From contig NZ_JADJNN010000008.1 of NCBI RefSeq assembly GCF_016714285.1, positions 68,669 to 132,668 of the forward strand: a stretch of DNA of 64,000 bases, read 5' to 3'. Shown piece after piece: positions 2,875-59,379 of the stretch. The position numbers were made by a program, and so were the translations under genes. The notes beneath the pieces are model-generated. The model was not told the DNA's origin. It did no database searches and worked only from the letters and a program-made list of their open reading frames with translations. Every line of letters begins with the position of its first letter. Positions within the stretch are counted from its first letter, which is position 1. This stretch comes from Nannocystis sp. Its GTDB lineage: Bacteria; Myxococcota_A; Polyangia; Nannocystales; Nannocystaceae.

Positions 2875-4071
2875 TCAGTCCGCGAGCTCGAGCAGCAGCT
2901 GACGGCAGCGGAGGCGGCGGAGCTCGTCGGCCTCGGGGCGCTCGACGTACGCCGTGAGCAGCGCGCGGGCCTCGGCGTGGCGGGCCTTGTCGCCGGGGCC
3001 GGCGAGGGCGCTGCCGAGGTTGAACTGCAGCTCGGGCGGGAGGCGCTCGGGCGGGTCGCCGCGGTGCCAGTCGCGGGCGGCGGCGGCGAGGCGGTAGGCC
3101 TGCTCGGCGCCGGCGGGGTCGTGCAGGCGGGTGCGGGCGACGCCGAGGCCGAGGCCGGCGAGGTAGCGGTCGACGGCGGCGGGGGCCTCGAGGGCGGGGG
3201 CGTAGAGCTCGGCGGCCTTGCGGTCGTTGCCGGCGGCCAGCTCGGCGGCGGCCCAGCTGAGGCGCGGGGCGGGCTCGTCGGGGTCGAGGGTGAGGGCGAG
3301 GGCGAAGCGGCGGCGGGCCTCGCCGGGCTCGTGGGCGGCGAGCGAGACGCGGGCGCAGCTGGCGACGAACAGGGCGGCGCCGCGGGGGTCGCCGCCGTCG
3401 GCCGCGGGGTTGTCGTCGACGATGCGTTCGCGGCAGATCTGGGCGGCGAGGGCGAGGCGTTCGGGCTCGCGGTCGGCGAGGGCGAGGTCGTGGCGCAGGG
3501 CGACGGCGAGGGCGTAGGGGTCGTCGGGGGCGAGGGCGAGGGCGGCCTGGAATTCGCTGCGCGCGGCGTCGCGGTCGGCGGGCTCGGCCCGGGCCTCGAA
3601 GGCGGCGACGTGGAGGAGGGCGAGGCCGACGCGGGCGCTCGGGCCCTGGAGGAGCTCGCGGGCCTCGGGGACCAGACCCTCGGCGAGGGCCAGGGCGGCG
3701 AGCTCGTGGGCCCAGCGCGGGCGCGGGTCGCGTTGCAGCAGCTCGGCGTAGATCGCCAGGACGGCCCGCGCGGCGCCGCAGCGGCGCAGGACGGCGGCGC
3801 GGGCGAGGGCCTCGTCGGTGGTGGGCGGGATCGAGGTGTCGGCGCAGGGGTCGGGGGCGGGCGCGGGGACGACGGTGTCGGGGTGCGCGGGGCGGACCGC
3901 GGCGCCGGGGGCCTCGCGCTTGCAGGCGAGCAGGAGGCAGAGCGCGACTGTCCCGAGGGACAGGTTGCGAGCGGCTGGCTGGGCTGTCCGGAGGGACATG
4001 GTGGAAGAGACAGCTGCGGCTGGCCGGAGGAACATGGCGGAAAGGGCAGCTTGGGCTGGCCGGAGGGACAT
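2875..4071 (-). CDS. TPR-like repeat lipoprotein
   Basis: The signal peptide plus lipobox is LGTVALCLLLAC, followed by a helical Ala/Leu/Arg-rich TPR-like body. Three in-frame ATGs (3999, 4035, 4071) lie in a 36-bp x3 tandem repeat. The long N-terminal ORF extension to 5106 is an artefact overlapping cobA. Confidence 0.6.
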   Translation of the reverse strand: MSLRPAQAALSAMFLRPAAAVSSTMSLRTAQPAARNLSLGTVALCLLLACKREAPGAAVRPAHPDTVVPAPAPDPCADTSIPPTTDEALARAAVLRRCGAARAVLAIYAELLQRDPRPRWAHELAALALAEGLVPEARELLQGPSARVGLALLHVAAFEARAEPADRDAARSEFQAALALAPDDPYALAVALRHDLALADREPERLALAAQICRERIVDDNPAADGGDPRGAALFVASCARVSLAAHEPGEARRRFALALTLDPDEPAPRLSWAAAELAAGNDRKAAELYAPALEAPAAVDRYLAGLGLGVARTRLHDPAGAEQAYRLAAAARDWHRGDPPERLPPELQFNLGSALAGPGDKARHAEARALLTAYVERPEADELRRLRCRQLLLELAD

Positions 4072-4090
4072 GGCGGGAGGGCCAGGTTGG
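3980..4090. repeat. 36-bp tandem repeat x3, each copy carrying an in-frame ATG (encodes MSLRPAQAALSA / MFLRPAAAVSST / MSLRTAQPAARN)
   Basis: Direct inspection shows ATG codons (cat on the plus strand) at 3997, 4033 and 4069, spaced 36 bp apart. Each unit contains GGAGGGACATGG. Confidence 0.8.
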
Positions 4091-4091
4091 T

Positions 4092-5660
4092 TCAGCGCTG
4101 GAGCGCGGCGAGCACGGTCGCGAGCATGGCGCGGTCGTCGGTGGACTCGGCGACGTGGTCGACGCGGACGCCGAGGGCGGTGATCGCCGCGGCGGTGACG
4201 GGGCCGAGGGCGAGGACCTGGGCCCTCGCCAGCAGCTCGCGCGCGGCGGCTTCGCCGTGGGCCTCGGCGACGGTGGCGAGGAAGTGGCGGGCGGTCTTGC
4301 CGCTGGCGAAGCAGATGGCGTCGCAGCCCTCGCCGCCGTGCTCGGGCGGGAGCAGCGAGCGGGTCAGCATGGCCGGGACGGGCGGGCGGACGACGCGGTA
4401 GCCGATGACGAGGTGGTAGCGGCCGCCGGCGGCGGTGATGGCCGCGGCGAGCAGGTCGCGGCCCTCGTCGGCGCGCACGTGCAGCCAGCGGCGGGCGAGC
4501 ATGTCGCGGGCGCGGAGCTCGTCGACCAGGCCCTCGGCGCGGGCCTGGTGGGGGACGATGTCGGGCTGGATGCCGCGCTCGATGCAGGCGGTGGCGGTGC
4601 CGGTGCCGATCGCGGCGACGCACTTGCCGTGGAGGATGCGGACGTCGACGCCGGTGCTGGCGAGGGCGTCGAACCAGGCGCGCACGCCGTTGGGGCTGGA
4701 GAGGATCACGCCGTCGACCTCGCCCAGGTCGCGGACGGCGCGGGTGAGGGCGTCGAGGTCGGCGGGCGGGGCGAGGTCGAGGCAGGGGAAGGCGACCGCG
4801 TCGGCGCCGTGGGCCGCGAGCATGTGCAGCAGCTCGCCGGCCTGCTGGGTGGCGCGGGTGACGACGACGCGGCGGCCGAACAGCGGGCGGCGCTCGAACC
4901 ACTCGATCTGGGCCCGGAGGTCGACGACGCTGCCGACGATCATCACGGCGGGCGGGCGGATGCCCTCGGCGTCGACGCGGTCGGCGAGCTGAGCGAGCGG
5001 GGCGACGACGGTGCGCTGGATCCCCCGCGTGCCCCAGCGGATCAGCGCGGCGGGGGTGGCGGGGTCGCGGCCGGCGGCGATCAGGCGCTCGGCGTTGTCG
5101 CGGCAATTCTTGACCGACATCATCAGCACGAGGGTGCCGGTGCCGCGGGCGAGGTGCTCCCAGTCGACGCCGCGGCCGCCCTTCTCGTAGGCCTCGTAGC
5201 CGGAGGCGATGGTGACGCTCGGGCTGTGGTCGCGGTGGGTGACCGGGATGCCTGCGGCCTCGGCGGCGGCGATCGAGGCGCTGACGCCGGGGACGAACTC
5301 GTAGTCGATGCCGGCGGCGCGCAGGACCTGGGCCTCCTCGGCGCCGCGGCCGAAGACCATGGGGTCGCCGCCCTTGAGGCGGACGACGTGGAGGCCGGCG
5401 CCGGCCTTGGCGAGCAGGAGGCGGTGGATCTCGTCCTGGTCGACGACGGGCTGGCCGTGGGCCTCGCTGGCGAAGGGGCCGTGCGGGCTCTGGGTGCGCT
5501 GGTAGAGCTGCACGTCGCGGCGGCAGTGCATGAAGAGCGCGGGGTTGACGAGGTAGTCGGCGACCACCACGTCGGCGCGGGCGAGGCGGTCGCGCCCGGC
5601 GAGGGTCAACAGCTCGGGGTCCCAGGGACCCGCTCCGACGATCGACACGAGGCCGGGCAC
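4092..5660 (-). CDS. cobA/hemD: uroporphyrinogen-III C-methyltransferase / uroporphyrinogen-III synthase fusion (CobA-HemD)
   Basis: The N-terminus MPGLVSIVGAGPWDPELLTLAGRDRLARADVVVADYLV is the SUMT signature. The C-terminal half shows the HemD fold (GVILSSPNGVRAW..., ...ICFASGKTARHF). Confidence 0.85.
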   Translation of the reverse strand: MPGLVSIVGAGPWDPELLTLAGRDRLARADVVVADYLVNPALFMHCRRDVQLYQRTQSPHGPFASEAHGQPVVDQDEIHRLLLAKAGAGLHVVRLKGGDPMVFGRGAEEAQVLRAAGIDYEFVPGVSASIAAAEAAGIPVTHRDHSPSVTIASGYEAYEKGGRGVDWEHLARGTGTLVLMMSVKNCRDNAERLIAAGRDPATPAALIRWGTRGIQRTVVAPLAQLADRVDAEGIRPPAVMIVGSVVDLRAQIEWFERRPLFGRRVVVTRATQQAGELLHMLAAHGADAVAFPCLDLAPPADLDALTRAVRDLGEVDGVILSSPNGVRAWFDALASTGVDVRILHGKCVAAIGTGTATACIERGIQPDIVPHQARAEGLVDELRARDMLARRWLHVRADEGRDLLAAAITAAGGRYHLVIGYRVVRPPVPAMLTRSLLPPEHGGEGCDAICFASGKTARHFLATVAEAHGEAAARELLARAQVLALGPVTAAAITALGVRVDHVAESTDDRAMLATVLAALQR

Positions 5661-5734
5661 GTCGGCGAGTGTATTACAAAGCCGGGGCCGCGCGGCGGCC
5701 CGCTGGGGCTCCCGCGCGGGGCCTGGGCGGTGTT

Positions 5735-7531
5735 ATGGTCCGCGGCGTCATGCGCGGTGCGGGGTCGGTCGTGGTCGTGGTGGGGGCGGGGCACGCGGGG
5801 CTCGAGGCCGCGTTCGCGGCGGCCCGCGTCGGCGTGCAGGTGGTCGTGGTGACGGGGAGCCTCGAGACGATCGGGCAGACGCCGTGTAACCCGAGCGTGG
5901 GCGGGGTGGCGAAGGGACACCTGGTCAAGGAGATCGAGTCGCTCGGGGGTTTCATGGGCCGGGCCGCCGACGCGTGTGCGATCCACGGGCGGATCTTGAA
6001 CCGCAGCAAGGGGCCGGCGGTGCGGGCGACCCGGGTGCAGGTCGACAAGCGGCGCTACGGGGAATTCGCGCGGGCGGCCCTGCTGGCGCAGCCGGCCCTG
6101 TTGGCGGGGCCGGGGATCACGGTGGTGGCGGGGCTGGTGGCGGGGGTGATCCTGGCCGAAGGGACAGGTCGTGTCGGCGGGGTGCGGCTGCAGGACGGCT
6201 CGCAGATCGCGGGCGACGCGGTGGTGCTGACGACCGGGACCTTCCTCGGCGGGGTGCTGCACACGGGGGCCGAGCGGACGCCGGGCGGGCGGGTCGGCGA
6301 GGCGCCGGCGCTGGCGCTGGCGGAGCACCTGCGCGGGCTGGGCTTCGCGCTCAAGCGGCTCAAGACGGGGACGCCGGCGCGGCTCGACGGGCGGACGATC
6401 GATCGCGGCGATCCGGCGATCGAGCTGCAGCCGCCCGAAGATCCGGCGCCGCGCTTCGTGGCGCCGGACGACGACCCGCCGCCGCTGCTGCGCCAGGTCG
6501 ACTGTCACCTGACCCACACCTGCGCCGCGACCCACGATCTGGTGCGGGCCCACCTGCACGCGTCGGCGATGTACTCGGGGGCGATCACGGGCCGGGGGCC
6601 GCGCTACTGCCCGTCGATCGAGGACAAGGTGGTGCGCTTCGCGGAGCGCGAGCGGCATCAGGTGTTCCTCGAGCCGGAGGGGCTGGACACCGACAGCGTG
6701 TACCCGAACGGGGTGTCGACGAGCCTGCCGGCGGCGGTGCAGGAGGCGTTCCTGCGCACGATCGCGGGGCTGTCGCGGGTGGTGCTGCTGCGGCCGGGCT
6801 ACGCGGTCGAGTACGACGCGGTCGACGCCCGGGCGCTGACCCACACGCTGGCGAGCAAGGACCTGCCGGGGCTGTACTTCGCGGGCCAGATCAACGGGAC
6901 CTCGGGCTACGAGGAGGCGGCGGCGCAGGGGCTGATCGCGGGGGCCAACGCGGCGCTGTGGCTGCGCGAGCGGCCGGCGCTGCAGGTCGGGCGCGACCAG
7001 GGCTACATCGGCGTGCTGGTCGACGACCTGGTGACGCAGGGCTGCGACGAGCCGTACCGGATGTTCACGGCGCGGGCCGAGTACCGCCTGCTGCTGCGCG
7101 AGGACAACGCCGACGCGCGCCTGTGCGACCTGGCCTTTGCGGCAGGTCTGATCGGACAGGCGCGGCACGAGCGGGCGCGGGCGCGGGCGGAGCAGGTGAA
7201 CGCGATGGCGGCGGCGATCGAGCGGCGCCGCGACCCGGGGCCGGGGCCGGCGTGGCTGCGCGAGCGGGCCGAGGCCCAGGCCTGCTACGCGGGTTATCTC
7301 GTGCGGCAGCAGCGGGAGGTCGATCGCCTGCGCGGCGACGCGGCCGACCTGCCGCTCGACCCGAACACCGACTACGGGCGGCTGGCGGGGCTGACGAGCG
7401 AGGCGGCGGAGCGCCTGGCTCGCGTGCGGCCGACCAGCACCGGGCAGGTCGGGCGGATCCCCGGCATCACGCCGGCGGCGCTGATGTGCGTGTGGGCCCA
7501 CGCGCGCGCGGCCCTGAGTAATCTGTCCTGA
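5735..7531 (+). CDS. mnmG: tRNA uridine 5-carboxymethylaminomethyl modification enzyme MnmG (GidA)
   Basis: Contains the FAD-binding motif VVVVGAGHAGLEAAFAAAR, then TPCNPSVGG, YCPSIEDK and GQINGTSGYEEAAAQG. It is divergent from cobA. The ATG at 5735 was chosen; the ORF starts at 5669. Confidence 0.9.
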   Translation: MVRGVMRGAGSVVVVVGAGHAGLEAAFAAARVGVQVVVVTGSLETIGQTPCNPSVGGVAKGHLVKEIESLGGFMGRAADACAIHGRILNRSKGPAVRATRVQVDKRRYGEFARAALLAQPALLAGPGITVVAGLVAGVILAEGTGRVGGVRLQDGSQIAGDAVVLTTGTFLGGVLHTGAERTPGGRVGEAPALALAEHLRGLGFALKRLKTGTPARLDGRTIDRGDPAIELQPPEDPAPRFVAPDDDPPPLLRQVDCHLTHTCAATHDLVRAHLHASAMYSGAITGRGPRYCPSIEDKVVRFAERERHQVFLEPEGLDTDSVYPNGVSTSLPAAVQEAFLRTIAGLSRVVLLRPGYAVEYDAVDARALTHTLASKDLPGLYFAGQINGTSGYEEAAAQGLIAGANAALWLRERPALQVGRDQGYIGVLVDDLVTQGCDEPYRMFTARAEYRLLLREDNADARLCDLAFAAGLIGQARHERARARAEQVNAMAAAIERRRDPGPGPAWLRERAEAQACYAGYLVRQQREVDRLRGDAADLPLDPNTDYGRLAGLTSEAAERLARVRPTSTGQVGRIPGITPAALMCVWAHARAALSNLS

Positions 7532-7561
7532 GAGCCATGTCATCAACCGGAGCTGGAACCG

Positions 7562-8527: not shown

Positions 8528-10094
<1,567 letters not shown>

Positions 10095-13002: not shown

Positions 13003-13014
13003 GAGGCCGGGGCT

Positions 13015-31190: not shown

Positions 31191-31294
31191 CGGCGTGGCT
31201 GCGCCGGAGCGAGCTCGGGTTGAGCTGGCTGAGCTGCGCTGGCTCAGCGGGCTCTTGCTGGCTGAGCTGGCTCGGGCTGTCCCGAGGGACAGGT

Positions 31295-35126: not shown

Positions 35127-35245
35127 GGGGCACCTCCGAGCAGCGAGCGGGCGGCGGTCAGGGGGATGTAGATCGCCAGCAGCGGCGGGGAGAGGTCGAA
35201 GGTCACGGGGCACCTCCGAGCAGCGAGCGGGCGGCGGTCAGGGCG
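35081..35245. repeat. 80-bp tandem duplication x2 spanning the mrpD-like stop and the downstream GTG start (each copy encodes ...LTAARSLLGGAP* overlapping VTFDLSPPLLAIYI)
   Basis: Near-identical 80-bp units at 35081-35160 and 35161-35240, with 3-4 mismatches. Confidence 0.8.
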
Positions 35246-42196: not shown

Positions 42197-42210
42197 GGAT
42201 GGGACATGTC
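42197..42210. promoter_or_regulatory. perfect 12-bp palindrome GGGACATGTCCC containing the sppA1 start codon; member of a recurrent GGGACA/TGTCCC motif family
   Basis: Read directly; see the finding on the GGGACA motif. Confidence 0.3.
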
Positions 42211-44884
42211 CCGAGGTTCAGGATGGGCGGCGCTGGTGGTGCTGACGCTGGCGAGCCCGGTGGTGGCTGCTCCGCCGCTGCTGCCAGGGGACGCGACCGG
42301 GGAGGGTCGCTCGCTGCTGCGGGACGTCGATCGCACGCGCACCAACGTGGCCGGGGAGGCGGACGCGGCGGCGGTGGTGGCCAATCCCGCGAACATGGGC
42401 TTCTTGAAGGCGATCGGCGGGGTGATCGAGGGGTCGTGGACGCGGGCGACGGCGCAGCGGCGCGGCAGCGGGGTCGGGGCCTTCGTGGCGCTGCCGCTGT
42501 CGCTCAAGCTGTTCGGGCGCAGCGTGGCGGAGAGTTTCTTGGCGCTCGGGATCGGGTACCAGCACCTGCGGCCGACCAGCGTGTGGTTCCCGCAGGGGCA
42601 GGTCGCGGCCTACGAGCTCGGCGGGCGGACTGCGGCGGATCTGCCGTATCACAAGGTGTCGCTGTCGGCGGCGCTGCCGTTGATGCGCTGGGCGCCGGGG
42701 CTGGCGCTCGGGCTGTCGTACAGTCGCTTGTGGTCGGCGCGTAACCTGGCGGCGGACGACCTGAACCAGGTCGATCTGGCGATCGGGTATCGGCCGCATC
42801 GGGTGGTCGCGGTGGGGCTGGTGGCGCGGGCGATCAACATGCCGCGGGCGCACGGGGACGCGACGATCGTGCCGTCGCTGCCGGCGGTGGTCCAGCCCTT
42901 CGAGCTCGACCCGGAGCTGGCGCTGCGACCGATCCGCGGGACGCGGGCGCTCGAGCTGGCGGTGGGGGCGAGGATCGTGCCAGTGCAGCCGGTGCTGGAC
43001 CCGCGTTACGCGTTGCCGGTGCTCTCGCCGCGGGTGCGCGTGGAGGCGGGCGGGCGCGGGGTCCGGGTGTTCGCGGAGGGCGAGCGCTACGCGAGCGCGA
43101 CGGCGTCGGGGTCCGCCGCGGGGCTGCGCTTCATGACGGGGGTGGAGTTCGACCTGGCGAATGTCGGGCTGGCGGTGGCGCCTTCGTTCGGCAGCGGTGG
43201 TGGCGGGGCGGCGGGGGTGCAGGGCTTCGCGGGCAAGCTGCGGGTGTCGGCGGAGCGCTATGCGAGCCTGGCCGATCGGACAGGTGAGGCGCTGCGGGTG
43301 GACGTCGGCGCGTACGCGGGGGACCGCGGGATGTTCCGCCTGGTCGAGCTCATCGATCGCCTGGGCGAGCAGCACGGGGCGCTGCTGCTGCTCGAGGTCG
43401 AGACGCTGCGCCTGGGCTACGCGCAGATCGAGGAGGTGCGCGAGGCGCTGCTGCGGCTGCGGGCGCGCGGCGGGCGGGTCGCGGTGTATCTGCGCGGCGG
43501 GGGGATCCGCGAGTACTTCCTGGCGAGCGCGGCGGAGCGGATCTTCAGCCACCCGAACTCGCGGCTGTCGATCGTCGGGCTGCGGGTGGAGGTGTTCTTC
43601 TTCGCCGATCTGCTGGCGAAGCTGGGGGCGCGGGCGGAGTTCGTGCGGGTGGCGGAGTACAAGTCGCGGCCGGAGCAGTTCGAGCTGCGCAGCAGCAGCG
43701 AGCCGTCGGCGACGCAGCGGCAGCTGCTGGTGACGGACACGTGGAATCACCTCGTACGCCTGATCGGGCGCGGACGCGGGAAGACGGAGAAGCAGGTGGC
43801 GGACTGGGTCGACGCGGCGCCGCACGCCCCGGAGGGGGCGCTCGGGGTGGGGCTGGTCGACGAGCTGGCGTACGTCGACGAGCTCGAGGCGAGGCTCGGG
43901 AGCTGGCTCGGGCGGCGGGTGAAGCTGAAGGCGCCGGGCAAGCGACCGGCGCACGCGGAGGCGTACGGGCCGGGGCCGCAGGTGGCGGTGCTGCACATCG
44001 AGGGGACGATGAGCGACGGGGTGAGCCTCGAGATCCCGATCGTCGGCAGCAAGCTCGCGGGGAGCGAGACGCTGGTGAAGCAGATCGACGCGCTGCGGGA
44101 GGATCGCCGGGTGAAGGCGGTGGTCGTGCGCATCGACAGCCCGGGCGGGTCAGTGGCGGCGGCCGACGCGATGACGCGGGCGCTCGAGCGGACCGCGAAG
44201 GTGAAGCCGGTCGTGATCTCGATGGGCAACGTGGCGGCGTCGGGCGGCTACTACGTGGCGACGGCGGGGCAGTACATCTTCAGCGACGCGCTGACGCGGA
44301 CGGGGAGCATCGGGATCTTTCGGCCGAAGGTCGACCTGTCGGGCACGCTGAAGCTGTTCGGCGTCGGTGTCGATGAGATCAGCGTGGGGGCGAAGGCGGG
44401 GCTGTACTCGTGGTGGAAGCCGTACACGCCGGAGGAGCGCGCGGCGGCCCAGAGCGGCATCGAGGCGCAGTACCAGATCTTCGTGCAGCGGGTCGCGCGG
44501 GCGCGGGCGATGGCGCCGGCGGAGGTCGACCGTGTGGCGCGCGGGCGGATCTGGAGCGGGGTGCGGGCGCAGGAGATCGGCCTCGTCGACGCGTACGGCG
44601 GCCTGCGCGAGGCGGTTTTGCACGCGCGGGCGCTGGCCAAGCTGGGGCCGACGGACGGCGAGCTGCGGCACTATCCGCGGCCGCCGAATCTGGTGGAGCA
44701 GATCGACGCGCTGTTCGGGCTGCGCCTGCCGTCGCCCCTGGGGCTGCGTGGCGGGTCCGTGGCTGGGGCGGAGCTCGTCGACGGCGCGCTGCTCTGGGTG
44801 CTGCGGCGTTTACCCGCGACCGTGTGGTGGATGTCGGGACCGGAGCCGCTGGCGATGGCGGAGGAGGTCGTCACCCTGGAGTAA
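42206..44884 (+). CDS. sppA: signal peptide peptidase A-like serine protease (SppA 67K type, two S49 domains) with a ~350-aa N-terminal beta-rich domain of unknown function
   Basis: The signal peptide is ALVVLTLASPVVAAP. The S49 domains carry the catalytic Ser in GNVAASGGYY. It is paralogous to 51800-54442. Confidence 0.8.
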   Translation: MSRGSGWAALVVLTLASPVVAAPPLLPGDATGEGRSLLRDVDRTRTNVAGEADAAAVVANPANMGFLKAIGGVIEGSWTRATAQRRGSGVGAFVALPLSLKLFGRSVAESFLALGIGYQHLRPTSVWFPQGQVAAYELGGRTAADLPYHKVSLSAALPLMRWAPGLALGLSYSRLWSARNLAADDLNQVDLAIGYRPHRVVAVGLVARAINMPRAHGDATIVPSLPAVVQPFELDPELALRPIRGTRALELAVGARIVPVQPVLDPRYALPVLSPRVRVEAGGRGVRVFAEGERYASATASGSAAGLRFMTGVEFDLANVGLAVAPSFGSGGGGAAGVQGFAGKLRVSAERYASLADRTGEALRVDVGAYAGDRGMFRLVELIDRLGEQHGALLLLEVETLRLGYAQIEEVREALLRLRARGGRVAVYLRGGGIREYFLASAAERIFSHPNSRLSIVGLRVEVFFFADLLAKLGARAEFVRVAEYKSRPEQFELRSSSEPSATQRQLLVTDTWNHLVRLIGRGRGKTEKQVADWVDAAPHAPEGALGVGLVDELAYVDELEARLGSWLGRRVKLKAPGKRPAHAEAYGPGPQVAVLHIEGTMSDGVSLEIPIVGSKLAGSETLVKQIDALREDRRVKAVVVRIDSPGGSVAAADAMTRALERTAKVKPVVISMGNVAASGGYYVATAGQYIFSDALTRTGSIGIFRPKVDLSGTLKLFGVGVDEISVGAKAGLYSWWKPYTPEERAAAQSGIEAQYQIFVQRVARARAMAPAEVDRVARGRIWSGVRAQEIGLVDAYGGLREAVLHARALAKLGPTDGELRHYPRPPNLVEQIDALFGLRLPSPLGLRGGSVAGAELVDGALLWVLRRLPATVWWMSGPEPLAMAEEVVTLE

Positions 44885-47082: not shown

Positions 47083-50000
47083 TCAAGGTCCGGCGTCGCG
47101 CGCGGGGGTTGCGGTCTGCGGGGCCGCGTAGGGGAAGATGTCCGAAGCGCGCAGCTCGACCAGCTCGGCCTGCAGCAGCTGGCGCAGCGCGGCGAGGTCG
47201 ATGCGCCGACGATCGGCGAGCACGCTGACGATCGCGGGGGCGGTGAAGTGGTGCTGCAAAGCTTGCAGCTGCGGTGCGGCGAGCGACTGCAGGGTTGCGA
47301 GCTCCCAGGCACGCGGGTCGCCGGTCTCGCCGCGCTCGGCCCATACTTGGACCCAGTCGGGCACGCGTCGCGGGGGGATGCGGGTGGCGACCATCTCGCG
47401 GGTGAGGGCGACGCGGGCCGCGGCGATGCGATCGTCGCCGGGATCGGGGGCACGCAGGATCTCGAGCAGGAGCGTGAGGGCCTCGCGGCTCTTGTCGGCC
47501 TGGGTGCCGAGGCGGCCGAGCAGGGCGGCGCCGTCGATGTCGCGGGCGCCGGCGATGAGCAGGCCGGAGGCGCTGTAGGCGAGGCCGCGGGCCTCGCGGA
47601 TCTGCTGGAACACGAGGCCGCTCATGTCGCCGCCCAAGATCTGGTTGAGCAGGCGCGCCGCGGGGCGATCGCTGCGGGGCAGCGGCGGGCTGGCCAGGGC
47701 GACCTCGATCTGGGCCTGGGCCATGTCGCGGTGGAGGAAGAAAATTGTCGGGGTCGCGAGTGGACGCAGGGCTCGGGGCGGTCGCGGGGCGACGGGCTTG
47801 CCGGCGCTCGCGGGCAGGGCGGTCACCAACGCGTCGGCGATGCGGGGGCCGAAGTAGAGGTGATGACGCGAGCTGTCCGCGAGGACAGCCAGCTCGCGGG
47901 CGAGCTCGGGGCCGCGGGCCTGGCGGAGCTGGCGGTCGCCCGGGCGGGTGAGGATGTCGCTGGCGGGGCCGCGGCGGGCGTACTCGGCGAGGGCCTCGGC
48001 GAGCGCCTCGGGGTCGTCCTGCTCGTCGCGGCGGAGGCTGAGGGTGTTGGCGAGGAGGTCGCGGACGGTGTCGTCGTCGAAGCCGGGGCGGCGCAGCCAG
48101 GTGTCGAGGAGGGCGAGGCTCTGCTCGAGGTGCTCGTCGACGCCGGTGACGAAGATGCGGGTCTGGTCGGCGCCGCAGTCGGTGTCGATGGTGGTGCCGA
48201 GCTGGAACAGGCGGCGCTGGAGCGCCTCGGCGTCGAGGTCACCGGCGCCGGAGAGGGCGAGGAGGTCGAGGGCGTGGCCGAGGAGCGGGCGCTGGCGGGT
48301 GCCGAGCTCGAAGCGGAGGGTGAGGGAAAACAGGTCGCTGCGGCGGTTCTGGGCAGCGATCAGGGGGCCGGCGGGGGTGCTGCGGCGGGTGTAGTCGCGG
48401 CCTTCTTGCAGCCACACGGGGTCGGGGTCGGGGGCGGCCTCGGCGAGCAGCTCGGCGGCGAAGCGGCTGATGCGGGCGGGGTCGATCGGCACCGGGGTGA
48501 TGACCGGCTTGGGCATCTTCGGCGGGTCGTGGCGGCCGCGCTTGCGCACGATCGCTACGTGGTCGGCGCCGAGGTAGGTGGCGGCGACGCGGAGGATGTC
48601 GCCGTGGGTGACGCGGGCCATGGCGGCGACGAAGCGGACGTGCTCGGGCCAGCTGCGGCGCTCGAGGTAGGCGTCGGCGATCCAGCTGACGCGGCCGTTG
48701 TTGGACTCGCGGGCCATCTGCTCGCGGATCTGCTCGTGGAGGACGATCGCGTCGATGTCGGCCTGGGTGAAGGCGCCGGCCTTGAGGTCGGTGATGACGG
48801 AGCGCAGGAGGCGTTCGACCTCGGCGTGGCTCTGGTCGTCGCGGGCGACGCCGGTGAGCGCGAAGTAGCCGCCGTCGACCAGCTGCTCGCCGTGGCCGTC
48901 GGCGTCGGGCAGCTCGCCCGAGAGCAGGAGGCGGACGTTGAGCAGGCCGCTGACGTCGTTGTCGACGAGCTCGGCGAGCACGGCGAGCGCGGGCTCGTCG
49001 GGGTGGCCGGCGGGGACGGTGCGCCAGGCGAGGGTGACCGACTGCTCGCCCTCGGCGGTGATGATGCGCTCGATGCGACCGACGGGGCCGTCGAGGGCGC
49101 CGGGCGGGGGTGGTGGGAGCTGTCCCGGAGACCATGTCGCAAAGGCCAGCTCGAGGGCGGCGAGGGCGGCGGTGGGGTCGAGGTCGCCGGCGAGGATCAG
49201 GGCGGCGTTGTTGGGGAGGTACCAGCGTCGGTGGTAGGCGACCATCTCGGCGAGGGCGGGGTTACGCAGGTGCTCGGCGTCGCCGAGGATCGTCTGGGTG
49301 CCATAGGGGTGGCGCGGGAACAGGGCCAGGCGCAGGGCCTCGTCCATGCGGTCCTCGGGGGTGTCGAGGCTGATGTTCTTCTCCTCGTAGACGGCCTCGA
49401 GCTCGGGGAGGAACAGGCGGAAGGTGGGCGCGGCGAGGCGCTCGGCCTCGACGCGGGCCCACGCGGCGAGGCGCGCGGCCGGGAGGTCGGCCATGTAGAC
49501 GGTGGTGTCGTCGGTCGTGAAGGCGTTGACGTCGAGGATGCCGAGGCCGGCGTAGAGGCGGTCGAGCTCGTTGGGGATCGCGGTGACGGCCGCGGACTGC
49601 GTGGCGGCGTCGATGTCGGCGAGGATCGCGGCGCGCTCGCCGGGCGTGGAGCGCGGGAGCCGATCGTAGAGGGCGGCGGTGCGGGCGAGGTGCGGCCGCT
49701 CGGCGTCGGCGTCGAGGGTGCCGAGCCTGGCGGTGCCCTTGAACATCATGTGCTCGAGGTAGTGGGCGAGGCCGGTCGAGTGGGCGGGGTCGTGGCGGCT
49801 GCCGGCTCGAATCGCGATCCAGGCGGAGATCCGGGGCTGCTCGCGGTCGACGCTGAGGTAGACGGTGAGGCCGTTGGACAGGCGGTGGATCGTGACGGCG
49901 AGAGGGTCGTCGGGGAGCGGGGTGGGGAGGGGGCGGGGCGTCGGGGGCGTAGGCGATCGCGGTGGGGCCGCCGGTGCGGGGGCGACGGGGGGGCGAGGAG

Positions 50001-51796: not shown

Positions 51797-51799
51797 GGG

Positions 51800-54438: not shown

Positions 54439-54442
<4 letters not shown>
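51800..54442 (-). CDS. SppA-like S49 serine protease paralog (two S49 domains) with the same N-terminal beta-rich domain as 42206-44884
   Basis: The signal peptide is LVVVALVATLTTPAAAQQ. It shares RGSGVGGF and S49 blocks with the other paralog, including the catalytic GDVAASGGYYVA. Its start ATG overlaps the GroES-like stop (ATGA). Confidence 0.8.
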
Positions 54443-54891
<449 letters not shown>

Positions 54892-55053
54892 CGGCCGCGA
54901 CTGTACCGCAAGTCGGGCGATCCGCGGGGGCCGGTGCGGCGGCGCAGCAGGGCAAGTCGGGCGATCCGCGGAGGCCGACGCGGCGCAGCATGGCAAGTCG
55001 GGCGCTCTGCGGAGGCCGACGCGGCGCAGCAGGGCCTCGCGCAAGTCAGGCGA

Positions 55054-57462
55054 TCAGCGGAGGCCGGCGCGGCGGCGCAGCAGGGCCTCGCCGCCGAGGC
55101 CGATCAGCGCGAGCAGGAGGGCCCAGGGGCCGTCCCACAGCGGCACGCTGCGGCGGCTGTCGATGCGCAGGCCGGGGCCCTCGTCGCCGAGCTCGGCGAG
55201 CGGCAAGGAGCTCGGCAGGGCGTCGCCGTCGCGGGCGCGGAGGAAGCGGCCGCCGGTGGCCTCGGCGAGGGCCTGGAGGCGCTGTTCGCCGGGGTCGGCG
55301 TCGACGCGGGCGAGCTCGTGGCCGGGCTCGTCGACCAGGAAGACGCGGCGGGCGCGGGCCGGCGGCGGGCCGTCGACCTGTCCCGAAGGACCTGTCCTCC
55401 AGGCCATGGCCTCGTAGGCGCCGACGGGGAGGCGGCCGGGCAAGGTGTCGCTGGCGCGGCCGAGGGCGTCGGTGGTCCATGTCCCTTCGGACAGGAGGAA
55501 GGTGGGCGGGCCGGGGCTGTTGTTGTTCGCCGGTGCGGGTTCGACGGCGCCGAGCGGGCGGACCTCCCAGGCGAGCGGGACGGCGGGCTCGGGGGCGTAG
55601 CTGGGGGTGAGGGCGGTGGCTCGCAGGGTGACTGGTTGGCCGCGGAGGTAGCTCGGGCGGTCGGTCTCGAGGCTGAGGCGCTCGGCGGCCGCGTCGCGCA
55701 GCAGCCAGCGGACGGCGCCGAGCCACAGGAGGTCGTAGGGGCGGGCGCCGTCGACGAGCGGGAGGTCGGCGGCGAAGCCGAGGCGCCAGGTGGCGCCGGT
55801 GGCGAGGACGAGGCTGCGGCCCTTGCCGGGCTCGGCGATCGCGAGCAGGGGGGCGCCGCCCTGGGCGGTGAGCAGCACGGCGCTGGCGATGCTGGCGGCG
55901 TGGGGCGCGAGCTGGACGGGGTTGTAGCTGTCGAAGGCGGGGAGGGTCGACCAGTCGGGCGGGAGGGCGGCGAGCCAGGCGGTGATCGGGTGGCGTCGGC
56001 CGGCGTCGCTGAGGGCGGGGCGGTAGCTGTCGGTGAGGGTGCCGGTGGGGCGGCGGGTGTCGACGGGGAGGGTCGTGGCGAGCACGCCGGGGTAGTCGCC
56101 GGTGGCGAGGCCCATGTCGCCGCCGATGACGACGAGGGCGCCGCCCTCCTGCACGTAGCTGGCGATGTCGCCGAGGTAGACGCCGACCTGATGGTTGATC
56201 GCGTCGAAGTTGTGGAGGATGACGAGGTCGAAGGAGCCGAGCTGCTCCTTGAAGAGCTCGTCGGTGGGGAAGGCGATCAGGCTGAGCTCGGCGGAGGGGT
56301 CGTCGCGGTCGGCGTCCTCGACGCTGCGCAGGATGTAGTAGCTGAGCAGCTCGACGTTGGGGTCGCGGCCGAGCAGGGTCCGGAGCGCGCGCACGTCCCA
56401 GTCGGGGCGGCCGGCGACGTGGAGCACGCGGACCTTGTCGCGCAGGACCTTGACGACGAAGGCGCGGCGGTTGTTGGCGAGGGTGGCCTCGCCGGGGAGC
56501 GGGCGGACGGCGATCTCGTGGACGAACTGGCCGACGCGGTCGGGGGCGACCTCGAAGCGCACGGGGACCGGGACGCCGTCGGCGGCGAGGGTGACGCGGG
56601 TGCTCGCGACGAGGGCGCCGTCGCGGCGCAGGTCGACGTCGACGGGCGTGTCGGCGAGGCCGTGGGCGATCAGGTCGGCGCTGAACTCGGTGACGTTCTC
56701 GACGAAGGCGAACTCGCCGGCGTGGAGCTCGGCGACGGCGACGTCGCGGATCGCGGGGGCGCCGGCGCTGACGGTGGTGATCGGGACGCCGAGGGCGCGG
56801 GCGGCCAGGAGCAGCGGGTCCTGGGCGGGCTGGCCGTAGGTACCTGTCCCTTCGAACAGGCCGTCGGAGAGCACGAGGACGGCGGCGAGCGGGCGGGGGT
56901 CGTCGGTGGCGAGGCCGGGCTCGCCGGCGTCCGGGGCCTGGGCGAGCTCGGCGAGGGCGCGGGCGAGGTCGGAGGCGGGGCCGTCGACGGGGACCTTGAG
57001 CTCGTCGGCGTCGGTCTCGGCGATCGGGCGGCTGCGATCGGCGAAGCTGCGCAGGCCGGGGGACAGGCCCTGCTCGCGCCAGGCGGCGCGGGCCGGGGCG
57101 CCGGCGGACCAGAAGCTGCGCAGGCGATCGATGCGCGGGGTGGTCTTGGCGCCGGGGCGCTCGGCGTCGGCGAGGGCCATGCTGGCGCTGGCGTCGACGA
57201 GCACGGCGACGCGCGGACCGACCGGACGCACGGTCTCCCGGGCGAGGGTGAGCTCGAGGCCGACGGTGAGCAGGGCCAGCAGGCCGAGCATGCGCAGGGT
57301 GAACAGGCCGAGGCGGGTGCGGCGGGGCAGCGCGGGCCGGCCGGGGCCGGCGCCGCGGAGCGCGAGCGCGGCCTCGACGACGGCAATGGCGAGGCACACG
57401 ACCAGGAGGGTCAGGGCCAGCGGGTCCGGCACGTGGCCCGCGACGAGGCGCCAGCGCTCCAT
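55054..57462 (-). CDS. BatA-like membrane protein: N-terminal double-TM anchor, vWA-like domain (DxSxS) and a large C-terminal region
   Basis: The TM pair is LALTLLVVCLAIAVV... / ...LGLLALLTVGL. The MIDAS-like motif is VAVLVDASASM. Such proteins are typically encoded with DUF4159 and MoxR-type genes, and a DUF4159 gene is indeed upstream. Confidence 0.6.
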   Translation of the reverse strand: MERWRLVAGHVPDPLALTLLVVCLAIAVVEAALALRGAGPGRPALPRRTRLGLFTLRMLGLLALLTVGLELTLARETVRPVGPRVAVLVDASASMALADAERPGAKTTPRIDRLRSFWSAGAPARAAWREQGLSPGLRSFADRSRPIAETDADELKVPVDGPASDLARALAELAQAPDAGEPGLATDDPRPLAAVLVLSDGLFEGTGTYGQPAQDPLLLAARALGVPITTVSAGAPAIRDVAVAELHAGEFAFVENVTEFSADLIAHGLADTPVDVDLRRDGALVASTRVTLAADGVPVPVRFEVAPDRVGQFVHEIAVRPLPGEATLANNRRAFVVKVLRDKVRVLHVAGRPDWDVRALRTLLGRDPNVELLSYYILRSVEDADRDDPSAELSLIAFPTDELFKEQLGSFDLVILHNFDAINHQVGVYLGDIASYVQEGGALVVIGGDMGLATGDYPGVLATTLPVDTRRPTGTLTDSYRPALSDAGRRHPITAWLAALPPDWSTLPAFDSYNPVQLAPHAASIASAVLLTAQGGAPLLAIAEPGKGRSLVLATGATWRLGFAADLPLVDGARPYDLLWLGAVRWLLRDAAAERLSLETDRPSYLRGQPVTLRATALTPSYAPEPAVPLAWEVRPLGAVEPAPANNNSPGPPTFLLSEGTWTTDALGRASDTLPGRLPVGAYEAMAWRTGPSGQVDGPPPARARRVFLVDEPGHELARVDADPGEQRLQALAEATGGRFLRARDGDALPSSLPLAELGDEGPGLRIDSRRSVPLWDGPWALLLALIGLGGEALLRRRAGLR

Positions 57463-57482
57463 GCTAGCGGCGCAGCTCCGGG

Positions 57483-57640
57483 GTGGGGCGGGGCAGGACC
57501 TGGCTCTCGAGGCAGGTTCGGCTGGCCTCTGGGACAGGGCGCGTGGGACAGGTGGGGCGGGGCAGGACCTGGCTCTCGAGGCAGGTTCGGCTGGCCTCTG
57601 GGACAGGGCGTGTGGGACAGGTGGGGCGGGGCATGGTCAG
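57483..57640. repeat. 69-bp tandem repeat x2.1 in an intergenic region, rich in GGGACAGG motifs
   Basis: ggggcggggcaggacctggctctcgaggcaggttcggctggcctctgggacagggcg[ct]gtgggacaggt occurs twice, followed by a partial third copy. Confidence 0.8.
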
Positions 57641-58472: not shown

Positions 58473-58566
58473 CGCGGCGGCAGGATAACGCAGTCGCGGG
58501 GCGGCGCGGGACAGCGCCAGGGGCGCGGATGCATCGGCTTGTGGGGGATCGCGGGCTGTCGCTATC

Positions 58567-59058
58567 GTGATCGGCGTGGTGGTGGGGTTGGGCAGGTGGC
58601 TCGTGGGGGCGGCGTGGGCTGTGGCGCTGGCGATCGGCGTGGTCGGGCCCTTGCTGGTGCGGGCGGCGTGGGAGGGCCGGGCCGAGCTGGTGGCGGCGGA
58701 CGAGGCGGCGGCGGCGGGGCGCGTCGACCTCGAGATCGTGCACCTCGGTCGGGCGGCGCGCTGGCGGGTGCCGATCGCGGGGCACGACGAGGCGGCGATC
58801 GCGAGGTTGCTGGCGATCGGGGCCGCGACGGAGGGCAGCGAGGCGGGCTCGCAGACGGCGCTGGCGGCCTACCGCGAGGCCCGGGCGGCGCTGCTGGTGA
58901 CGCGCGTGGGGGCGGTCGGCGACCGCGAGGCGCTCGGGCTGGCGAACCGGCGGATCGCGGCGTTGATGGCCGCGCAGGAGATGGCGTTCGGGACGGACCT
59001 GTCGGGGCGCGGGGCGGCGGAGGCGTATCACCTGGCGCTGCTCGAGCGGGCCGGGTGA
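58567..59058 (+). CDS. hypothetical membrane-anchored protein
   Basis: 163-aa ORF with an N-terminal TM and a helical Ala-rich body. No family was recognised. Confidence 0.35.
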   Translation: MIGVVVGLGRWLVGAAWAVALAIGVVGPLLVRAAWEGRAELVAADEAAAAGRVDLEIVHLGRAARWRVPIAGHDEAAIARLLAIGAATEGSEAGSQTALAAYREARAALLVTRVGAVGDREALGLANRRIAALMAAQEMAFGTDLSGRGAAEAYHLALLERAG

Positions 59059-59070
59059 TGCGGTACGGGC

Positions 59071-59187
59071 TTGAGGACAGGTGCTTCGGGACAGGTTACG
59101 GGGCTGTCCTGGAGGACAGGTGCTTCGGGACAGATTGCGAGGCTGGCCTGGAGGACAGGTGCTTCGGGACAGAGGCCCGCGCCCTCG
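59071..59187. repeat. 39-bp tandem repeat x3 (ctggaggacaggtgcttcgggacag...) in a convergent intergenic region
   Basis: gaggacaggtgcttcgggacag occurs at about 59073, 59112 and 59151. Confidence 0.8.
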
Positions 59188-59379
59188 GCCACGATTGTGA
59201 CACCAGGGCAACTTCCGCCGCGCGCCGCCCCTGACGGTGGTGTCGCTGGTGGCAGGATCGCTGCTGGTGCTGGTGGCAGATGCGCCGTGGTACTGTCACT
59301 TTCGCCGCTGCGGGGGGGGGCGGGGGGGGGCGGCGCGCTGGTTGGCGAAGGCGCGCCGGAGGCGACCGGATCGACGGCT

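Follow-up and report, generated by a model that had tools for sequence, protein, structure and literature searches.

A fixed-spacing palindrome dispersed through Nannocystis genomes and its possible recognition by a dimeric protein

The motif GGGACA(G/T)G recurs, often as a palindrome, at gene starts and inside intergenic tandem repeats of a 64,000-nucleotide stretch of DNA (the window), the source of which is a Nannocystis MAG. The question raised by this locus is whether the motif is the operator of a global regulator, a small dispersed repeat family, or a by-product of base and codon composition.

Definition and enrichment of the palindrome

All of the motif copies listed in a first-pass annotation were found, within a few bases of where it had placed them. 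The 8-mer GGGACAKG occurs 18 times on the two strands of the window, against 6.1 ± 2.5 in dinucleotide shuffles, none of 100 of which reached 18; extra tandem copies and double counting of the palindrome at 42201 make up five of the 18, which leaves about 13 independent hits. For the 6-mer GGGACA by itself the window shows no enrichment (39 vs 31.8), and in an unbiased intergenic-versus-coding k-mer test it ranks only 7th, with the 8-mer outside the top 15. The motif as annotated is real but too narrowly defined, being the right half of a 16-bp palindrome, [C/A]TG[T/G]CC-N4-GG[A/C]CA[G/T], with the core form CTGTCC-N4-GGACAG and often extended to RC-CTGTCC-N4-GGACAG-GY. Positions 2, 3, 5, and 6 of the arm are nearly invariant, and positions 1 and 4 are degenerate.

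At ≤1 mismatch to CTGTCC-N4-GGACAG, the window contains 15 sites at spacing 4, compared with 0 to 1 at each of the other spacings from 0 to 14. Five syntenic related loci contain 6, 7, 8, 6, and 9 sites per 22 kb at spacing 4 and 0 to 2 at other spacings. In the pooled sequence (~430 kb), 62 perfect, 84 one-mismatch, and 122 two-mismatch sites were found, compared with 0.2, 0.8, and 21 per control spacing. Outside palindromes the half-site is at background, with 182 copies vs a median of 233 in composition-matched permutations. The real signal is therefore the palindromic arrangement rather than the 8-mer, and the earlier description of a frequency far above chance is upheld by the spacing control and by both the codon and the dinucleotide shuffles.

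The palindrome is genus-wide and hyper-abundant in Nannocystis, and the suggested small dispersed repeat family is borne out in that form, as a genus-wide dispersed short palindrome. Its density in Nannocystis is ~2.3 to 2.9 sites per 10 kb (≤1 mismatch), which extrapolates to roughly at least 3,000 copies per 12-Mb genome. In a scan of 185,579 species, 32 of the 118 hits sampled (as 8-kb tiles) were from Nannocystis or Nannocystaceae (11 genomes), and these tiles held 57 further, non-ascertained sites in 253 kb, compared with 6 in 630 kb from other taxa. Composition-matched high-GC tiles from other taxa held 1 extra site in 128 kb, and the Enhygromyxa and Paraliomyxa loci examined contained no sites.

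Sites in the window and the origin of coding copies

The individual sites of the window are as follows; gene positions here and below are those of our own codon-bias caller.

3948..3963: perfect site CTGTCCCGAGGGACAG, in the signal-peptide coding part of the lipoprotein gene 2875-3999 (minus strand), read as L-S-L-G-T, in which T has the rare codon ACA; the same 17-mer is found again at 31277
3984-3999: one mismatch; the minus-strand ATGTCC arm is the ATG start of gene 2875-3999 (minus strand)
6152..6167: CTGGCCGAAGGGACAG, one mismatch, within mnmG/gidA, where the frame reads L-A-E-G-T
9123..9138: perfect site CTGTCCCTGAGGACAG, in the 5' part of a transglutaminase-like gene (start uncertain) or upstream of it, with a (CGACGC)n tract after it at 9141-9210
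31277..31292: perfect site CTGTCCCGAGGGACAG, in a convergent spacer, 2 nt past the MbtH stop (tabulated gap, 3) and 120 nt after a kinase gene
32696..32711: CTGGCCCACAGGACAG, one mismatch, within the Mrp antiporter subunit gene 31527-33320 (minus strand)
40611..40626: ATGTCCCGGAGGACAG, one mismatch, within the MutS2-like gene 39587-42166 (plus strand)
42201..42221: GGGACATGTCCC, two abutting half-sites with a common AT, at what may be the ATG start (42206) of an S49 peptidase gene, or else in the spacer; its right-hand palindrome, ATGTCC-CGAG-GTTCAG, has three mismatches, and the element is a weak family member
43268..43283: CTGGCCGATCGGACAG, one mismatch, within the S49 peptidase gene 42236-44884 (plus strand)
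47873..47888: perfect site CTGTCCGCGAGGACAG, within the M16 peptidase gene 47083-49749 (minus strand), retained at the orthologous position in the related loci L006 and L008
54418..54433: CTGGCTTTGGGGACAG, degenerate, two mismatches, at codons 4-8 of the gene for an SppA-type S49 peptidase, 51800-54442 (minus strand), previously listed as the sppA2 start
55378..55407 (minus strand): 29-nt element TGGCCTGGAGGACAGGTCCTTCGGGACAG, two overlapping degenerate sites within an 802-aa gene, read as AMAWRTGPSGQ with five rare codons; it shares 97% identity with the 39-bp array unit (59144-59172), though in a differing reading frame, and is conserved in L006, L008, and L009
55479..55494: one mismatch, within the 802-aa gene, encoding LSEGTW as CTG TCC GAA GGG ACA TGG
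56844..56859: one mismatch, within the 802-aa gene, encoding LFEGTG; retained in L006 and L008 with a changed spacer

Most sites lie in genes: 90 of the 146 sites with ≤1 mismatch in ~430 kb (62%) are within coding sequence, and they occur in housekeeping genes of unrelated kinds (mnmG, mutS2, mrp, and those for M16 and S49 peptidases). Synonymous-codon shuffles yielded 5.4 ± 2.1 coding sites, and 0.18 perfect ones, vs the 90 and 38 observed. GC and codon composition, named by the first-pass annotation as what might undo its own claim, therefore fails to explain the frequency. In unascertained sequence, 21 of 79 ACA codons (27%) are in sites, though sites span 0.28% of codons. The reading frames of coding sites are used 52:29:9, and copies turn up where the protein permits L-S-x-G-T, at the cost of rare codons. 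The codons of the site at 55479 are identical in L008, L010, and L011, and L006 encodes the same peptide as CTC TCC GAA GGC ACC TGG; four genomes thus use GGG-ACA for LSEGTW and one uses GGC-ACC, without an indel. Several coding sites retain the disfavored ACA across genomes with 62 to 87% protein identity, and one DNA element is found in differing reading frames as well as in noncoding DNA. The palindrome is a DNA-level feature, the coding copies of which were made in situ via rare codons, without insertion.

Gene ends and tandem arrays

Site density is highest in convergent spacers (2.64 per kb), followed by tandem spacers (1.08), divergent spacers (0.40), and coding sequence (0.24). Among 48 intergenic sites flanked on one side by a gene end, half (24) start ≤20 nt past that gene's stop codon, with a tight cluster at 1 to 10 nt. 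The positional bias is therefore toward gene ends rather than gene starts. Three gene starts do read as first described (3999, 42206, and 54442, on their own strands), but these cases are anecdotal beside the bias measured over 429 kb. A mild enrichment is seen in the first decile of genes (17 sites vs ~8 per decile), and sites at the FecCD N terminus are conserved in the relatives L006, L008, and L011.

Palindrome sites seed tandem arrays, some of them in frame within proteins. The annotated tandem repeats were recovered by TRF (3978-4076, 36 bp × 2.8; 57482-57633, 69 bp × 2.2; 59073-59173, 39 bp × 2.6) and have the following features.

3978..4076 (minus strand): 36-bp (12-codon) array, 2.8 copies, across the start of gene 2875-3999 (minus strand), holding the site at 3984-3999, a degenerate copy at 4020-4035, and a two-mismatch site at 4056-4071
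57482..57633: 69-bp array, 2.2 copies, filling the spacer that separates the 802-aa gene from a DUF4159 gene, with CTGGCC-TCTG-GGACAG and, 14 bp on, a second GGACAG in every unit
59070..59186: 39-bp array, 3 copies, in the convergent spacer between gene 58567-59058 (plus strand) and the CAP-domain gene 59380-60003 (minus strand), with a perfect site at 59104, a one-mismatch site at 59143, and GGACAG direct repeats 14 bp apart

In L009 the spacer orthologous to 57482..57633 is occupied by a 48-bp array and in L006 by a short version; in L008 it contains a run of N, and in L010 and L011 it measures just 6 to 9 nt. An in-frame DLSPGTA array was found in the MoeA of Nannocystis sp. RBIL2. Array sites overlap by 2 bp at the 14-bp register, so adjacent dimers would probably clash.

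Candidate explanations and known systems

The best explanation, to which we assign a probability of about 0.45, is that the palindrome is a selection-kept recognition site of a putative dimeric DNA-binding protein that acts at transcription-unit ends or on chromosome structure. A sequence-specific, two-fold symmetric protein would bind the double-stranded palindrome, and selection would keep its sites chromosome-wide; the protein might serve as a boundary, a roadblock, or a determinant of topology, away from promoters, and the arrays would be secondary, the palindrome seeding local slippage or duplication. In half-site and spacing the palindrome equals LuxR/GerE-type lux boxes, the CviR operator among them. 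The palindrome has arms and spacing identical to those of the CviR/CsuR operator CTGNCCNNNNGGNCAG (the csuI operator is CTGTCCGATAGGACAG), its degenerate position 4 is N in the CviR consensus, and its extended flanks, ACCTGT..ACAGGT, match the Vibrio fischeri lux box ACCTGTAGGATCGTACAGGT. Arms, spacing, degenerate position, and flanks shared in this way imply that an HTH dimer with two-fold symmetry recognizes the palindrome. A genome has from a handful to tens of lux boxes, each upstream of a regulated promoter. In contrast, the palindrome extrapolates to thousands of copies, mostly intragenic or just past stops, and promoter spacers are its poorest intergenic class. To our knowledge, thousands of mostly intragenic sites are far beyond anything described for LuxR-type regulators.

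A less probable explanation is a REP-like hairpin, in which an RNA or single-stranded DNA stem-loop (6- to 8-bp stem, 4-nt loop) at gene 3' ends acts as a terminator, a 3'-exonuclease barrier, or a gyrase/REP-type site and owes its spread or homogenization to an enzyme of its own, for example a RAYT-type transposase, with coding copies as by-products. The convergent > tandem > divergent order of density and the clustering 1 to 20 nt past stops agree with it, the spacer arrays resemble BIME clusters, and the predicted RNA hairpins reach -8.6 to -13.6 kcal/mol. Full pairability is more common among intergenic (65 to 72%) than coding (40%) sites (p = 0.0003 to 0.002), and one site (L110) is flanked on both sides by T5/A5, like a bidirectional terminator; on these two grounds a hairpin role at gene ends may hold. 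However, a T tract accompanies just 1 of 28 stop-proximal sites, overlapping array sites are unable to fold simultaneously, and the intragenic 62% arose through point or codon changes rather than insertion. The central pair is disrupted in 34 of the 84 one-mismatch sites, commonly by a one-sided T>G that weakens the fold to -3.8 kcal/mol, and the compensatory form CTGGCC..GGCCAG is at background in the pooled ~430 kb. Pairing of flanks and spacer equals the independence expectation, with no covariation found, and no longer conserved element or GTAG-type guide was seen around the 16- to 20-bp core. The half-sites behave independently.

Neutral molecular drive, which would make palindromes from near-cognates by biased repair, methylation-linked or short-patch conversion, or biased DNA uptake without any site-level function, is unlikely. 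Purifying selection would then clear promoters and constrained codons and leave the density gradient, which does run opposite to functional constraint. Copies wherever the protein allows L-S-x-G-T, frame use that tracks codon cost, and partial site turnover among relatives fit such a process, and the nearest analogues, HIP1 and USS/DUS, have been discussed likewise. Against it, twelve specified bases at a fixed spacing far exceed any known repair or methylation context, the lone half-site lacks the enrichment of an uptake sequence, the disfavored ACA is retained at several coding sites despite protein divergence, and relaxed constraint alone fails to explain the clustering 1 to 10 nt past stops. 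Orthologous sites are retained in part, and a crude test gave an arm identity (0.90) scarcely above that of the flanks (0.87), so selection and a continuing neutral drive are not cleanly split.

The annotated reading, an operator of a global regulator at promoters or gene starts, with the regulon of a LuxR-type activator or repressor, is improbable. Its operator-like architecture stands, given the dyad symmetry and the exact match to CviR-type arms and spacing, and a few sites do lie at starts or 5' regions (3984, 42201, and the FecCD N terminus), as does the mild first-decile excess. The proposed role at gene starts lacks support, with 90 of 146 sites coding, divergent spacers the poorest intergenic class (0.40 vs 2.64 per kb in convergent ones), extrapolated copies in the thousands, and sites in unrelated housekeeping genes. 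An origin by chance, or as a side effect of GC content, of codon usage, or of a peptide that recurs (Gly-Thr-Gly or L-S-x-G-T), is refuted by the spacing control, the codon shuffles, and the composition-matched tiles, and the recurrence of one element across reading frames and noncoding DNA also speaks against it, even though the hexamer alone is unenriched and both it and the 8-mer rank low in the intergenic-versus-coding test.

Among known repeats, REPs are extragenic imperfect hairpins of 20 to 40 nt with a conserved guide tetranucleotide, copied by RAYT transposases. The Nannocystis palindrome resembles REP/BIME/REPINs in being dispersed, rich at gene 3' ends and in convergent spacers, clustered in arrays, and species or genus specific, but it has a 16- to 20-bp core without a conserved flank, is 62% coding via codon choice, and gives no evidence of pairing selection. 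Rickettsia palindromic elements (RPE) are mobile elements of 100 to 150 bp that insert as units and may sit in frame, adding peptide segments. The DLSPGTA array of MoeA is similar in this respect, whereas most Nannocystis coding copies are 16-bp sites from substitutions, and the insertions look like local tandem expansion of a resident site.

The uptake sequences USS/DUS of Pasteurellaceae and Neisseria also number at least 1,000 copies on either strand, in coding and noncoding DNA, and their inverted pairs are part of hairpins that closely follow genes (Kingsford et al. 2007, PMC1852404). Unlike the Nannocystis half-site, which is at background and enriched only as a fixed-spacing palindrome, they are asymmetric 9- to 12-mers over-represented singly.

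The palindrome may best be viewed as a myxobacterial analogue of the cyanobacterial HIP1 (Highly Iterated Palindrome 1) repeat GCGATCGC, a lineage-wide short palindrome that is 15- to 300-fold over-represented. No regulatory role at the level of genes was found for HIP1, which has been proposed to help structure the chromosome or nucleoid (Xu, Lawrence and Durand 2018, PMC5861425). Both are lineage-wide and hyper-abundant, occur inside and between genes, are built into coding sequence at the DNA level, and are partially conserved between genomes. The Nannocystis motif differs in sequence and phylum, is bipartite (6-N4-6, 12 specified bases) rather than a contiguous 8-mer, is roughly ten-fold sparser, is strongly biased to convergent spacers and the first 20 nt past stops, and makes tandem arrays and in-frame protein insertions.

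The palindromic unit and its abundance in Nannocystis

The octamer GGGACAKG, reported as over-represented by the first-pass annotation, was found to be one half of a longer element. Every listed occurrence exists, at coordinates right to within a few bases, and the excess is real (18 copies in the window versus 6.1 ± 2.5 in shuffles); 5 of the 18 matches are extra tandem copies or a double-counted palindrome, which leaves about 13 independent ones. GGGACA by itself is not enriched in the window, and an unbiased intergenic-versus-coding k-mer comparison of the window did not single out the octamer; the definition as an octamer is therefore not that of the real unit. Words that outrank it in intergenic enrichment include CGCGCGAG (8 intergenic, 10 coding), CGATCACACG-like words (ATCACACG, 4 intergenic versus 1 coding), and C7-8 runs.

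Once extended, the hits reveal a 16-bp inverted repeat with the consensus [C/A]TG[T/G]CC-N4-GG[A/C]CA[G/T] and a strict spacing of 4. With CTGTCC-Nx-GGACAG and at most one mismatch, the window contains 15 sites at x = 4 and 0 to 1 at every other x from 0 to 14. The half-site hexamer outside palindromes is at background (182 versus a median of 233 in 60 composition-matched permutations), and 87 of 110 GGGACAGG octamers fall within palindromic sites; the flagged octamer therefore amounts to the right arm and a single base of its flank. The logo of 51 sites reads RC-CTGTCC-N4-GGACAG-GY, with about 20 informative bp (20-mer duplex form, ACCTGTCCCGAGGGACAGGT) and no information past about 2 nt on either flank; these uninformative outer flanks rule out a longer MITE-like element. 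Within arrays, the direct repeats at 14-bp intervals correspond to palindromes overlapping by 2 bp (GGACAGGTCC and GGACATGTCC), and one such overlap junction accounts for the "perfect palindrome" GGGACATGTCCC at 42201.

Syntenic 22-kb loci were obtained from five relatives, including N. pusilla (CP185339), via homologs of the 802-aa protein encoded beside the DUF4159 gene of the window (62 to 87% protein identity). Each of the five loci contains 6 to 9 spacing-4 sites and essentially none at other spacings. The orthologous locus of a deeper-branching MAG contains two sites, and those of Enhygromyxa salina and Paraliomyxa miuraensis contain none. A 185,579-species genome collection was scanned with CTGTCCNNNNGGACAGGT, and 118 8-kb tiles were sampled among the matches listed. 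Among these, 32 tiles are from Nannocystis or Nannocystaceae and represent at least 11 genomes (N. exedens, N. pusilla, N. punicea, N. radixulma, N. bainbridge, strain RBIL2, and MAGs). Beyond the matches that ascertained them, the listed Nannocystis tiles contain 57 sites in 253 kb (2.25 per 10 kb), as against 6 in 630 kb for the other-taxon tiles among the matches listed and 1 in 128 kb for the high-GC ones of these. The apparent sites of one tile labelled Myxococcaceae look, by eye from their repeated flanks, like a Cys-rich coding repeat rather than copies of the motif.

In 430 kb of pooled Nannocystis DNA, 62 perfect, 84 one-mismatch, and 122 two-mismatch sites were counted versus 0.2, 0.8, and 21 per control spacing, that is, 146 sites with at most one mismatch versus about 1. 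The overall density is about 2.3 to 2.9 sites per 10 kb, which by extrapolation would amount to some 3,000 or more sites in a genome of 12 Mb. The 38 pooled sites ascertained by the scan pattern were left out of the tile densities and of the analyses of intergenic-versus-coding pairability and of flank and spacer pairing; they are included in the location densities, stop-distance counts, codon-shuffle comparison, and pooled site counts.

Placement relative to genes and origin in coding sequence

At the 71 to 72% G+C of the window, raw ORF lists were uninformative, and a codon log-likelihood gene caller trained on the clearest ORFs was therefore used. Gene starts derive from this codon-bias caller, made for this analysis, and stop positions are robust. 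The resulting map has a coding fraction of about 91%.

Genes of the window identified by Pfam and by the annotation of syntenic contigs
HemD/tetrapyrrole methylase fusion
5735-7531, MnmG (mnmG/gidA)
Mrp antiporter operon
31295-31510, minus strand, MbtH
Ser/Thr kinase
MutS2
Two S49 (SppA-type) peptidases
M16 peptidase
DUF4159 protein
CAP-domain protein
FabH

GC skew is positive all along the window (1-64000), at about +0.08 to +0.28 and mostly near +0.2, irrespective of gene strand, an unusually large skew of the replication type.

Site density by location (own gene calls, 429 kb)
Convergent spacers, 2.64 sites per kb
Tandem spacers, 1.08 sites per kb
Divergent spacers, 0.40 sites per kb
Coding sequence, 0.24 sites per kb

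The 146 sites comprise 90 coding and 56 intergenic ones, and 62% lie within genes with Pfam support. Half of the 48 intergenic sites flanked by a gene end on one side (24) start within 20 nt past its stop codon, several further sites overlap a stop codon (GGACAGGTGA), and in some convergent spacers each gene end has its own palindrome and the palindromes take up the whole spacer (sampled sequences L126, L012, and L027). The first-pass annotation had placed the motif at gene starts. The first gene decile is mildly enriched (17 sites versus about 8 per decile), and the sites have no general association with starts or promoters, divergent spacers holding just 0.40 per kb; the gene-start reading is therefore unsupported.

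A 22-kb stretch of the window, 9139-31276, lacks any site with at most one mismatch (P ~ 0.006 per interval at the window mean rate). Its G+C is slightly lower (0.704 versus 0.720), and Thr/Pro-rich lipoproteins, thrombospondin-type repeats, and spermidine synthase are among its products; the gap may point to acquired DNA or merely reflect uneven site density. The perfect site at 9123 is immediately followed by a (CGACGC)n hexamer tract (x 11, 9141-9210), which lies upstream of, or within the 5' end of, a transglutaminase-like gene whose start position is uncertain.

Within genes, the palindrome originates at the DNA level. Synonymous-codon shuffles of 346 genes gave 5.4 ± 2.1 coding sites (maximum, 13) versus 90 observed, and 0.18 perfect coding sites versus 38 observed. 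These shuffles, together with the same element in other frames and in noncoding DNA, reject a codon or peptide artefact, so that codon composition, named in the first-pass annotation as what might account for the motif, does not explain its frequency, and chance or such an artefact has a negligible probability. Coding sites are distributed over the reading frames as 52:29:9, tracking codon cost. ACA is rare for Thr (23 of 1,139 Thr codons in the window), and the motif distorts codon usage: a quarter of the ACA codons in 176 kb of unascertained sequence (21 of 79) belong to sites, which cover 0.28% of codons.

When six orthologs of the 802-aa protein were aligned by codon, coding sites showed substitutions and no indels, which rules out mobile-element insertion into genes for ordinary coding sites, array expansions such as that in MoeA (see below) being the exception. 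The peptide LSEGTW is encoded by CTG TCC GAA GGG ACA TGG in four genomes and by CTC TCC GAA GGC ACC TGG in a fifth. Likewise, five rare codons of AMAWRTGPSGQ are kept in four genomes, and the 29-nt element that encodes this peptide recurs in another reading frame within the noncoding 39-bp array of the window. Several coding sites, rare codons included, are kept in 3 to 4 of the 6 genomes. Orthologous identity is 0.90 in the arms versus 0.87 in the flanks by a crude blastn-based test, which is noisy because alignments anchor on the motif.

Tandem arrays and in-frame insertions

The tandem arrays described in the first-pass annotation were recovered by TRF, and further arrays were found in the syntenic loci of relatives.

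Arrays containing the palindrome, with period
Window, 3978-4076, 36 bp (TRF, x 2.8)
Window, 57482-57633, 69 bp (TRF, x 2.2)
Window, 59070-59186, 39 bp (TRF, x 2.6 at 59073-59173)
L009, 9766-9949, 48 bp
L010, 13535-13628, 48/45 bp
L011 (N. pusilla), 12965-13181, 69 bp

The larger periods (36, 39, 45, 48, and 69 bp) are all multiples of three, even in arrays called intergenic; a short 16- to 17-bp array in L027 is an exception. The long convergent spacer that holds the 39-bp array also holds two G9-type homopolymer runs (GCGGGGGGGGGCGGGGGGGGGCGG, 59310-59333).

The spacer separating the DUF4159 and 802-aa genes differs among genomes: in the window it is occupied by the 69-bp array and in L009 by a 48-bp one, L006 has a short version, L008 shows a run of N, and in L010 and L011 just 6 to 9 nt separate the genes. 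The arrays therefore are lineage-specific expansions. The N run of L008 (9859-9957) lies exactly where the array of the window would be orthologously, which suggests that the arrays break short-read assemblies. An ORF fills this spacer in three genomes (window, 57464-57634, minus strand, 56 aa; L006, 9905-9997; L009, 9727-9999), spanning the variable arrays. It begins directly past the upstream stop with MP(R/A)(P/A)(P)T, followed by TCP in the window and L006, and ends 1 to 2 nt ahead of the next start; in L009 it uses another frame relative to the motif. It may be open merely because the motif is without a stop in any frame.

Arrays also occur inside proteins. The SppA-type S49 peptidase of N. 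pusilla has three tandem 23-aa (69-bp) N-terminal repeats before the signal peptide (L011, 12950-13200), each holding one palindrome, which is translated as DLSSGTA. In Nannocystis sp. RBIL2 (L050, 2330-2521), four or five palindrome copies make up an in-frame MoeA insertion of about 60 aa at a point where E. coli MoeA (1fc5) has two residues; its four motif-encoded heptads are DLSPGTA, DMSPGTV, DLSSGTA, and DLSPRTA.

Tandem duplications without the palindrome were likewise observed at gene junctions of the window, at 27932-28085, 35069-35249, and 54908-55086. One (54 bp x 2.9) extends across the stop of one gene and the start of the following gene, another (80 bp x 2.3) copies an Mrp subunit junction, yielding a 27-aa chimeric ORF (35123-35206), and a third (41 to 48 bp x 4) occupies the 3' end of the 802-aa gene. 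Gene-junction duplication looks like a general habit of this genome.

Hairpin or duplex site, and comparison with known systems

Predicted RNA hairpins of the sites range from -8.6 to -13.6 kcal/mol, and full pairability is found in 65 to 72% of intergenic versus 40% of coding sites, as might be expected of a REP-like hairpin element. Against selection for a hairpin, the compensatory double change CTGGCC..GGCCAG occurs only at background, flank and spacer pairing equals the independence expectation with no covariation, and spacer orientation is unbiased relative to transcription. The central pair is broken in 34 of the 84 one-mismatch sites, by which the fold drops to -3.8 kcal/mol. A GC-rich hairpin is possible for a canonical Rho-independent terminator, but a T-tract (at least 5 T in the next 12 nt) follows just 1 of 28 stop-proximal sites (mean, 1.9 T versus 1.7 expected), and this candidate was rejected. 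Rfam gave no match within the window. In strain RBIL2 (L110, 7300-7345), two sites face each other across TTTTTAAAAA, 2 nt past a stop codon, and one site there has T5/A5 tracts on both sides; this is the sole example seen that resembles a canonical bidirectional intrinsic terminator.

Half-site positions 2, 3, 5, and 6 are almost invariant, and the changes at positions 1 (C>A) and 4 (T>G) are confined to one side. Such one-sided variation without a pairing signal fits two independently recognised half-sites, that is, a candidate two-fold symmetric double-stranded-DNA-binding protein. The palindrome is genus-wide, hyper-abundant, specified at the DNA level, biased to gene ends, and prone to expand into arrays. 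The reading that we favor, at a probability of roughly 45%, is that it is a selection-maintained recognition site of a dimeric DNA-binding protein that would act on transcription-unit ends or chromosome structure. It is conceivable, if rather doubtful, that Nannocystis has a dedicated genome-punctuation system in which a lineage-specific dimeric protein would read several thousand lux-box-like palindromes, after stops and at intervals within genes, stopping or insulating transcription units or organising supercoiling domains of the 12-Mb chromosome, the same sites being hotspots from which tandem arrays and in-frame peptide insertions would arise. The motif yields arrays that seem to break assemblies (compare the N run of L008) and in-frame protein insertions, and it might help to tell native from acquired DNA in Nannocystis genomes, where natural-product gene clusters abound. 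No earlier description of the palindrome in Nannocystis or other myxobacteria was found in the literature, of which coverage was incomplete.

To our knowledge, very few lineages have hyper-abundant short palindromes kept by selection inside genes. HIP1 of cyanobacteria is the classic case, its function unresolved despite decades. A second, unrelated HIP1-like example would offer an independent and more tractable handle on the role of such motifs, because the site is longer, bipartite, and equal in arms and spacing to a protein operator, the gene-end signature is sharp, and hosts (N. exedens and N. pusilla) are culturable.

REP/BIME elements and the USS/DUS of terminator hairpins (PMC1852404) are partial analogues. 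The Nannocystis sites share with REP/BIME both the clustering and the preference for gene 3' ends and convergent spacers. REP/BIME elements, however, are extragenic, with a 20- to 40-nt imperfect hairpin, a guide sequence, and maintained pairing, whereas 62% of the Nannocystis sites lie inside genes and the element is about 20 bp long and lacks compensatory changes and covariation; a REP-like hairpin element is somewhat unlikely. USS/DUS have an asymmetric core enriched as single copies, and an uptake-sequence model was rejected because the Nannocystis half-site alone is not enriched.

The closest known phenomenon is HIP1 (PMC5861425). As with HIP1, the palindrome is over-represented by one to two orders of magnitude lineage-wide, in coding and noncoding copies that neither peptide nor codon usage explains. 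HIP1, which is linked with GATC/CGATCG methyltransferases, differs in sequence (GCGATCGC) and in its cyanobacterial host. Neutral drive in the manner of HIP1 is less probable than a REP-like hairpin as an explanation of the Nannocystis sites.

The first-pass annotation had also suggested an operator for a global regulator. The CviR/CsuR quorum-sensing operator of Chromobacterium is CTGNCCNNNNGGNCAG, and the csuI promoter has CTGTCCGATAGGACAG (PMC12114271). Its arms and spacing are identical to those of the Nannocystis palindrome, which conforms to the CviR-class dyad CTGNCC-N4-GGNCAG, and the consensus N is the position that is degenerate in Nannocystis; the extended flanks match the V. fischeri lux box ACCTGTAGGATCGTACAGGT. 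Copy number and placement do not resemble a quorum-sensing regulon: lux boxes lie upstream of regulated promoters, few to tens per genome, whereas 90 of 146 Nannocystis sites are coding and divergent spacers are the poorest intergenic class. A promoter operator of a global regulator is accordingly improbable. The matches to the CviR operator and the lux box nevertheless make a LuxR/GerE-type HTH dimer a concrete candidate for the protein that would recognise the palindrome; the reader of a punctuation system might be such a protein, recruited from quorum-sensing-like ancestry.
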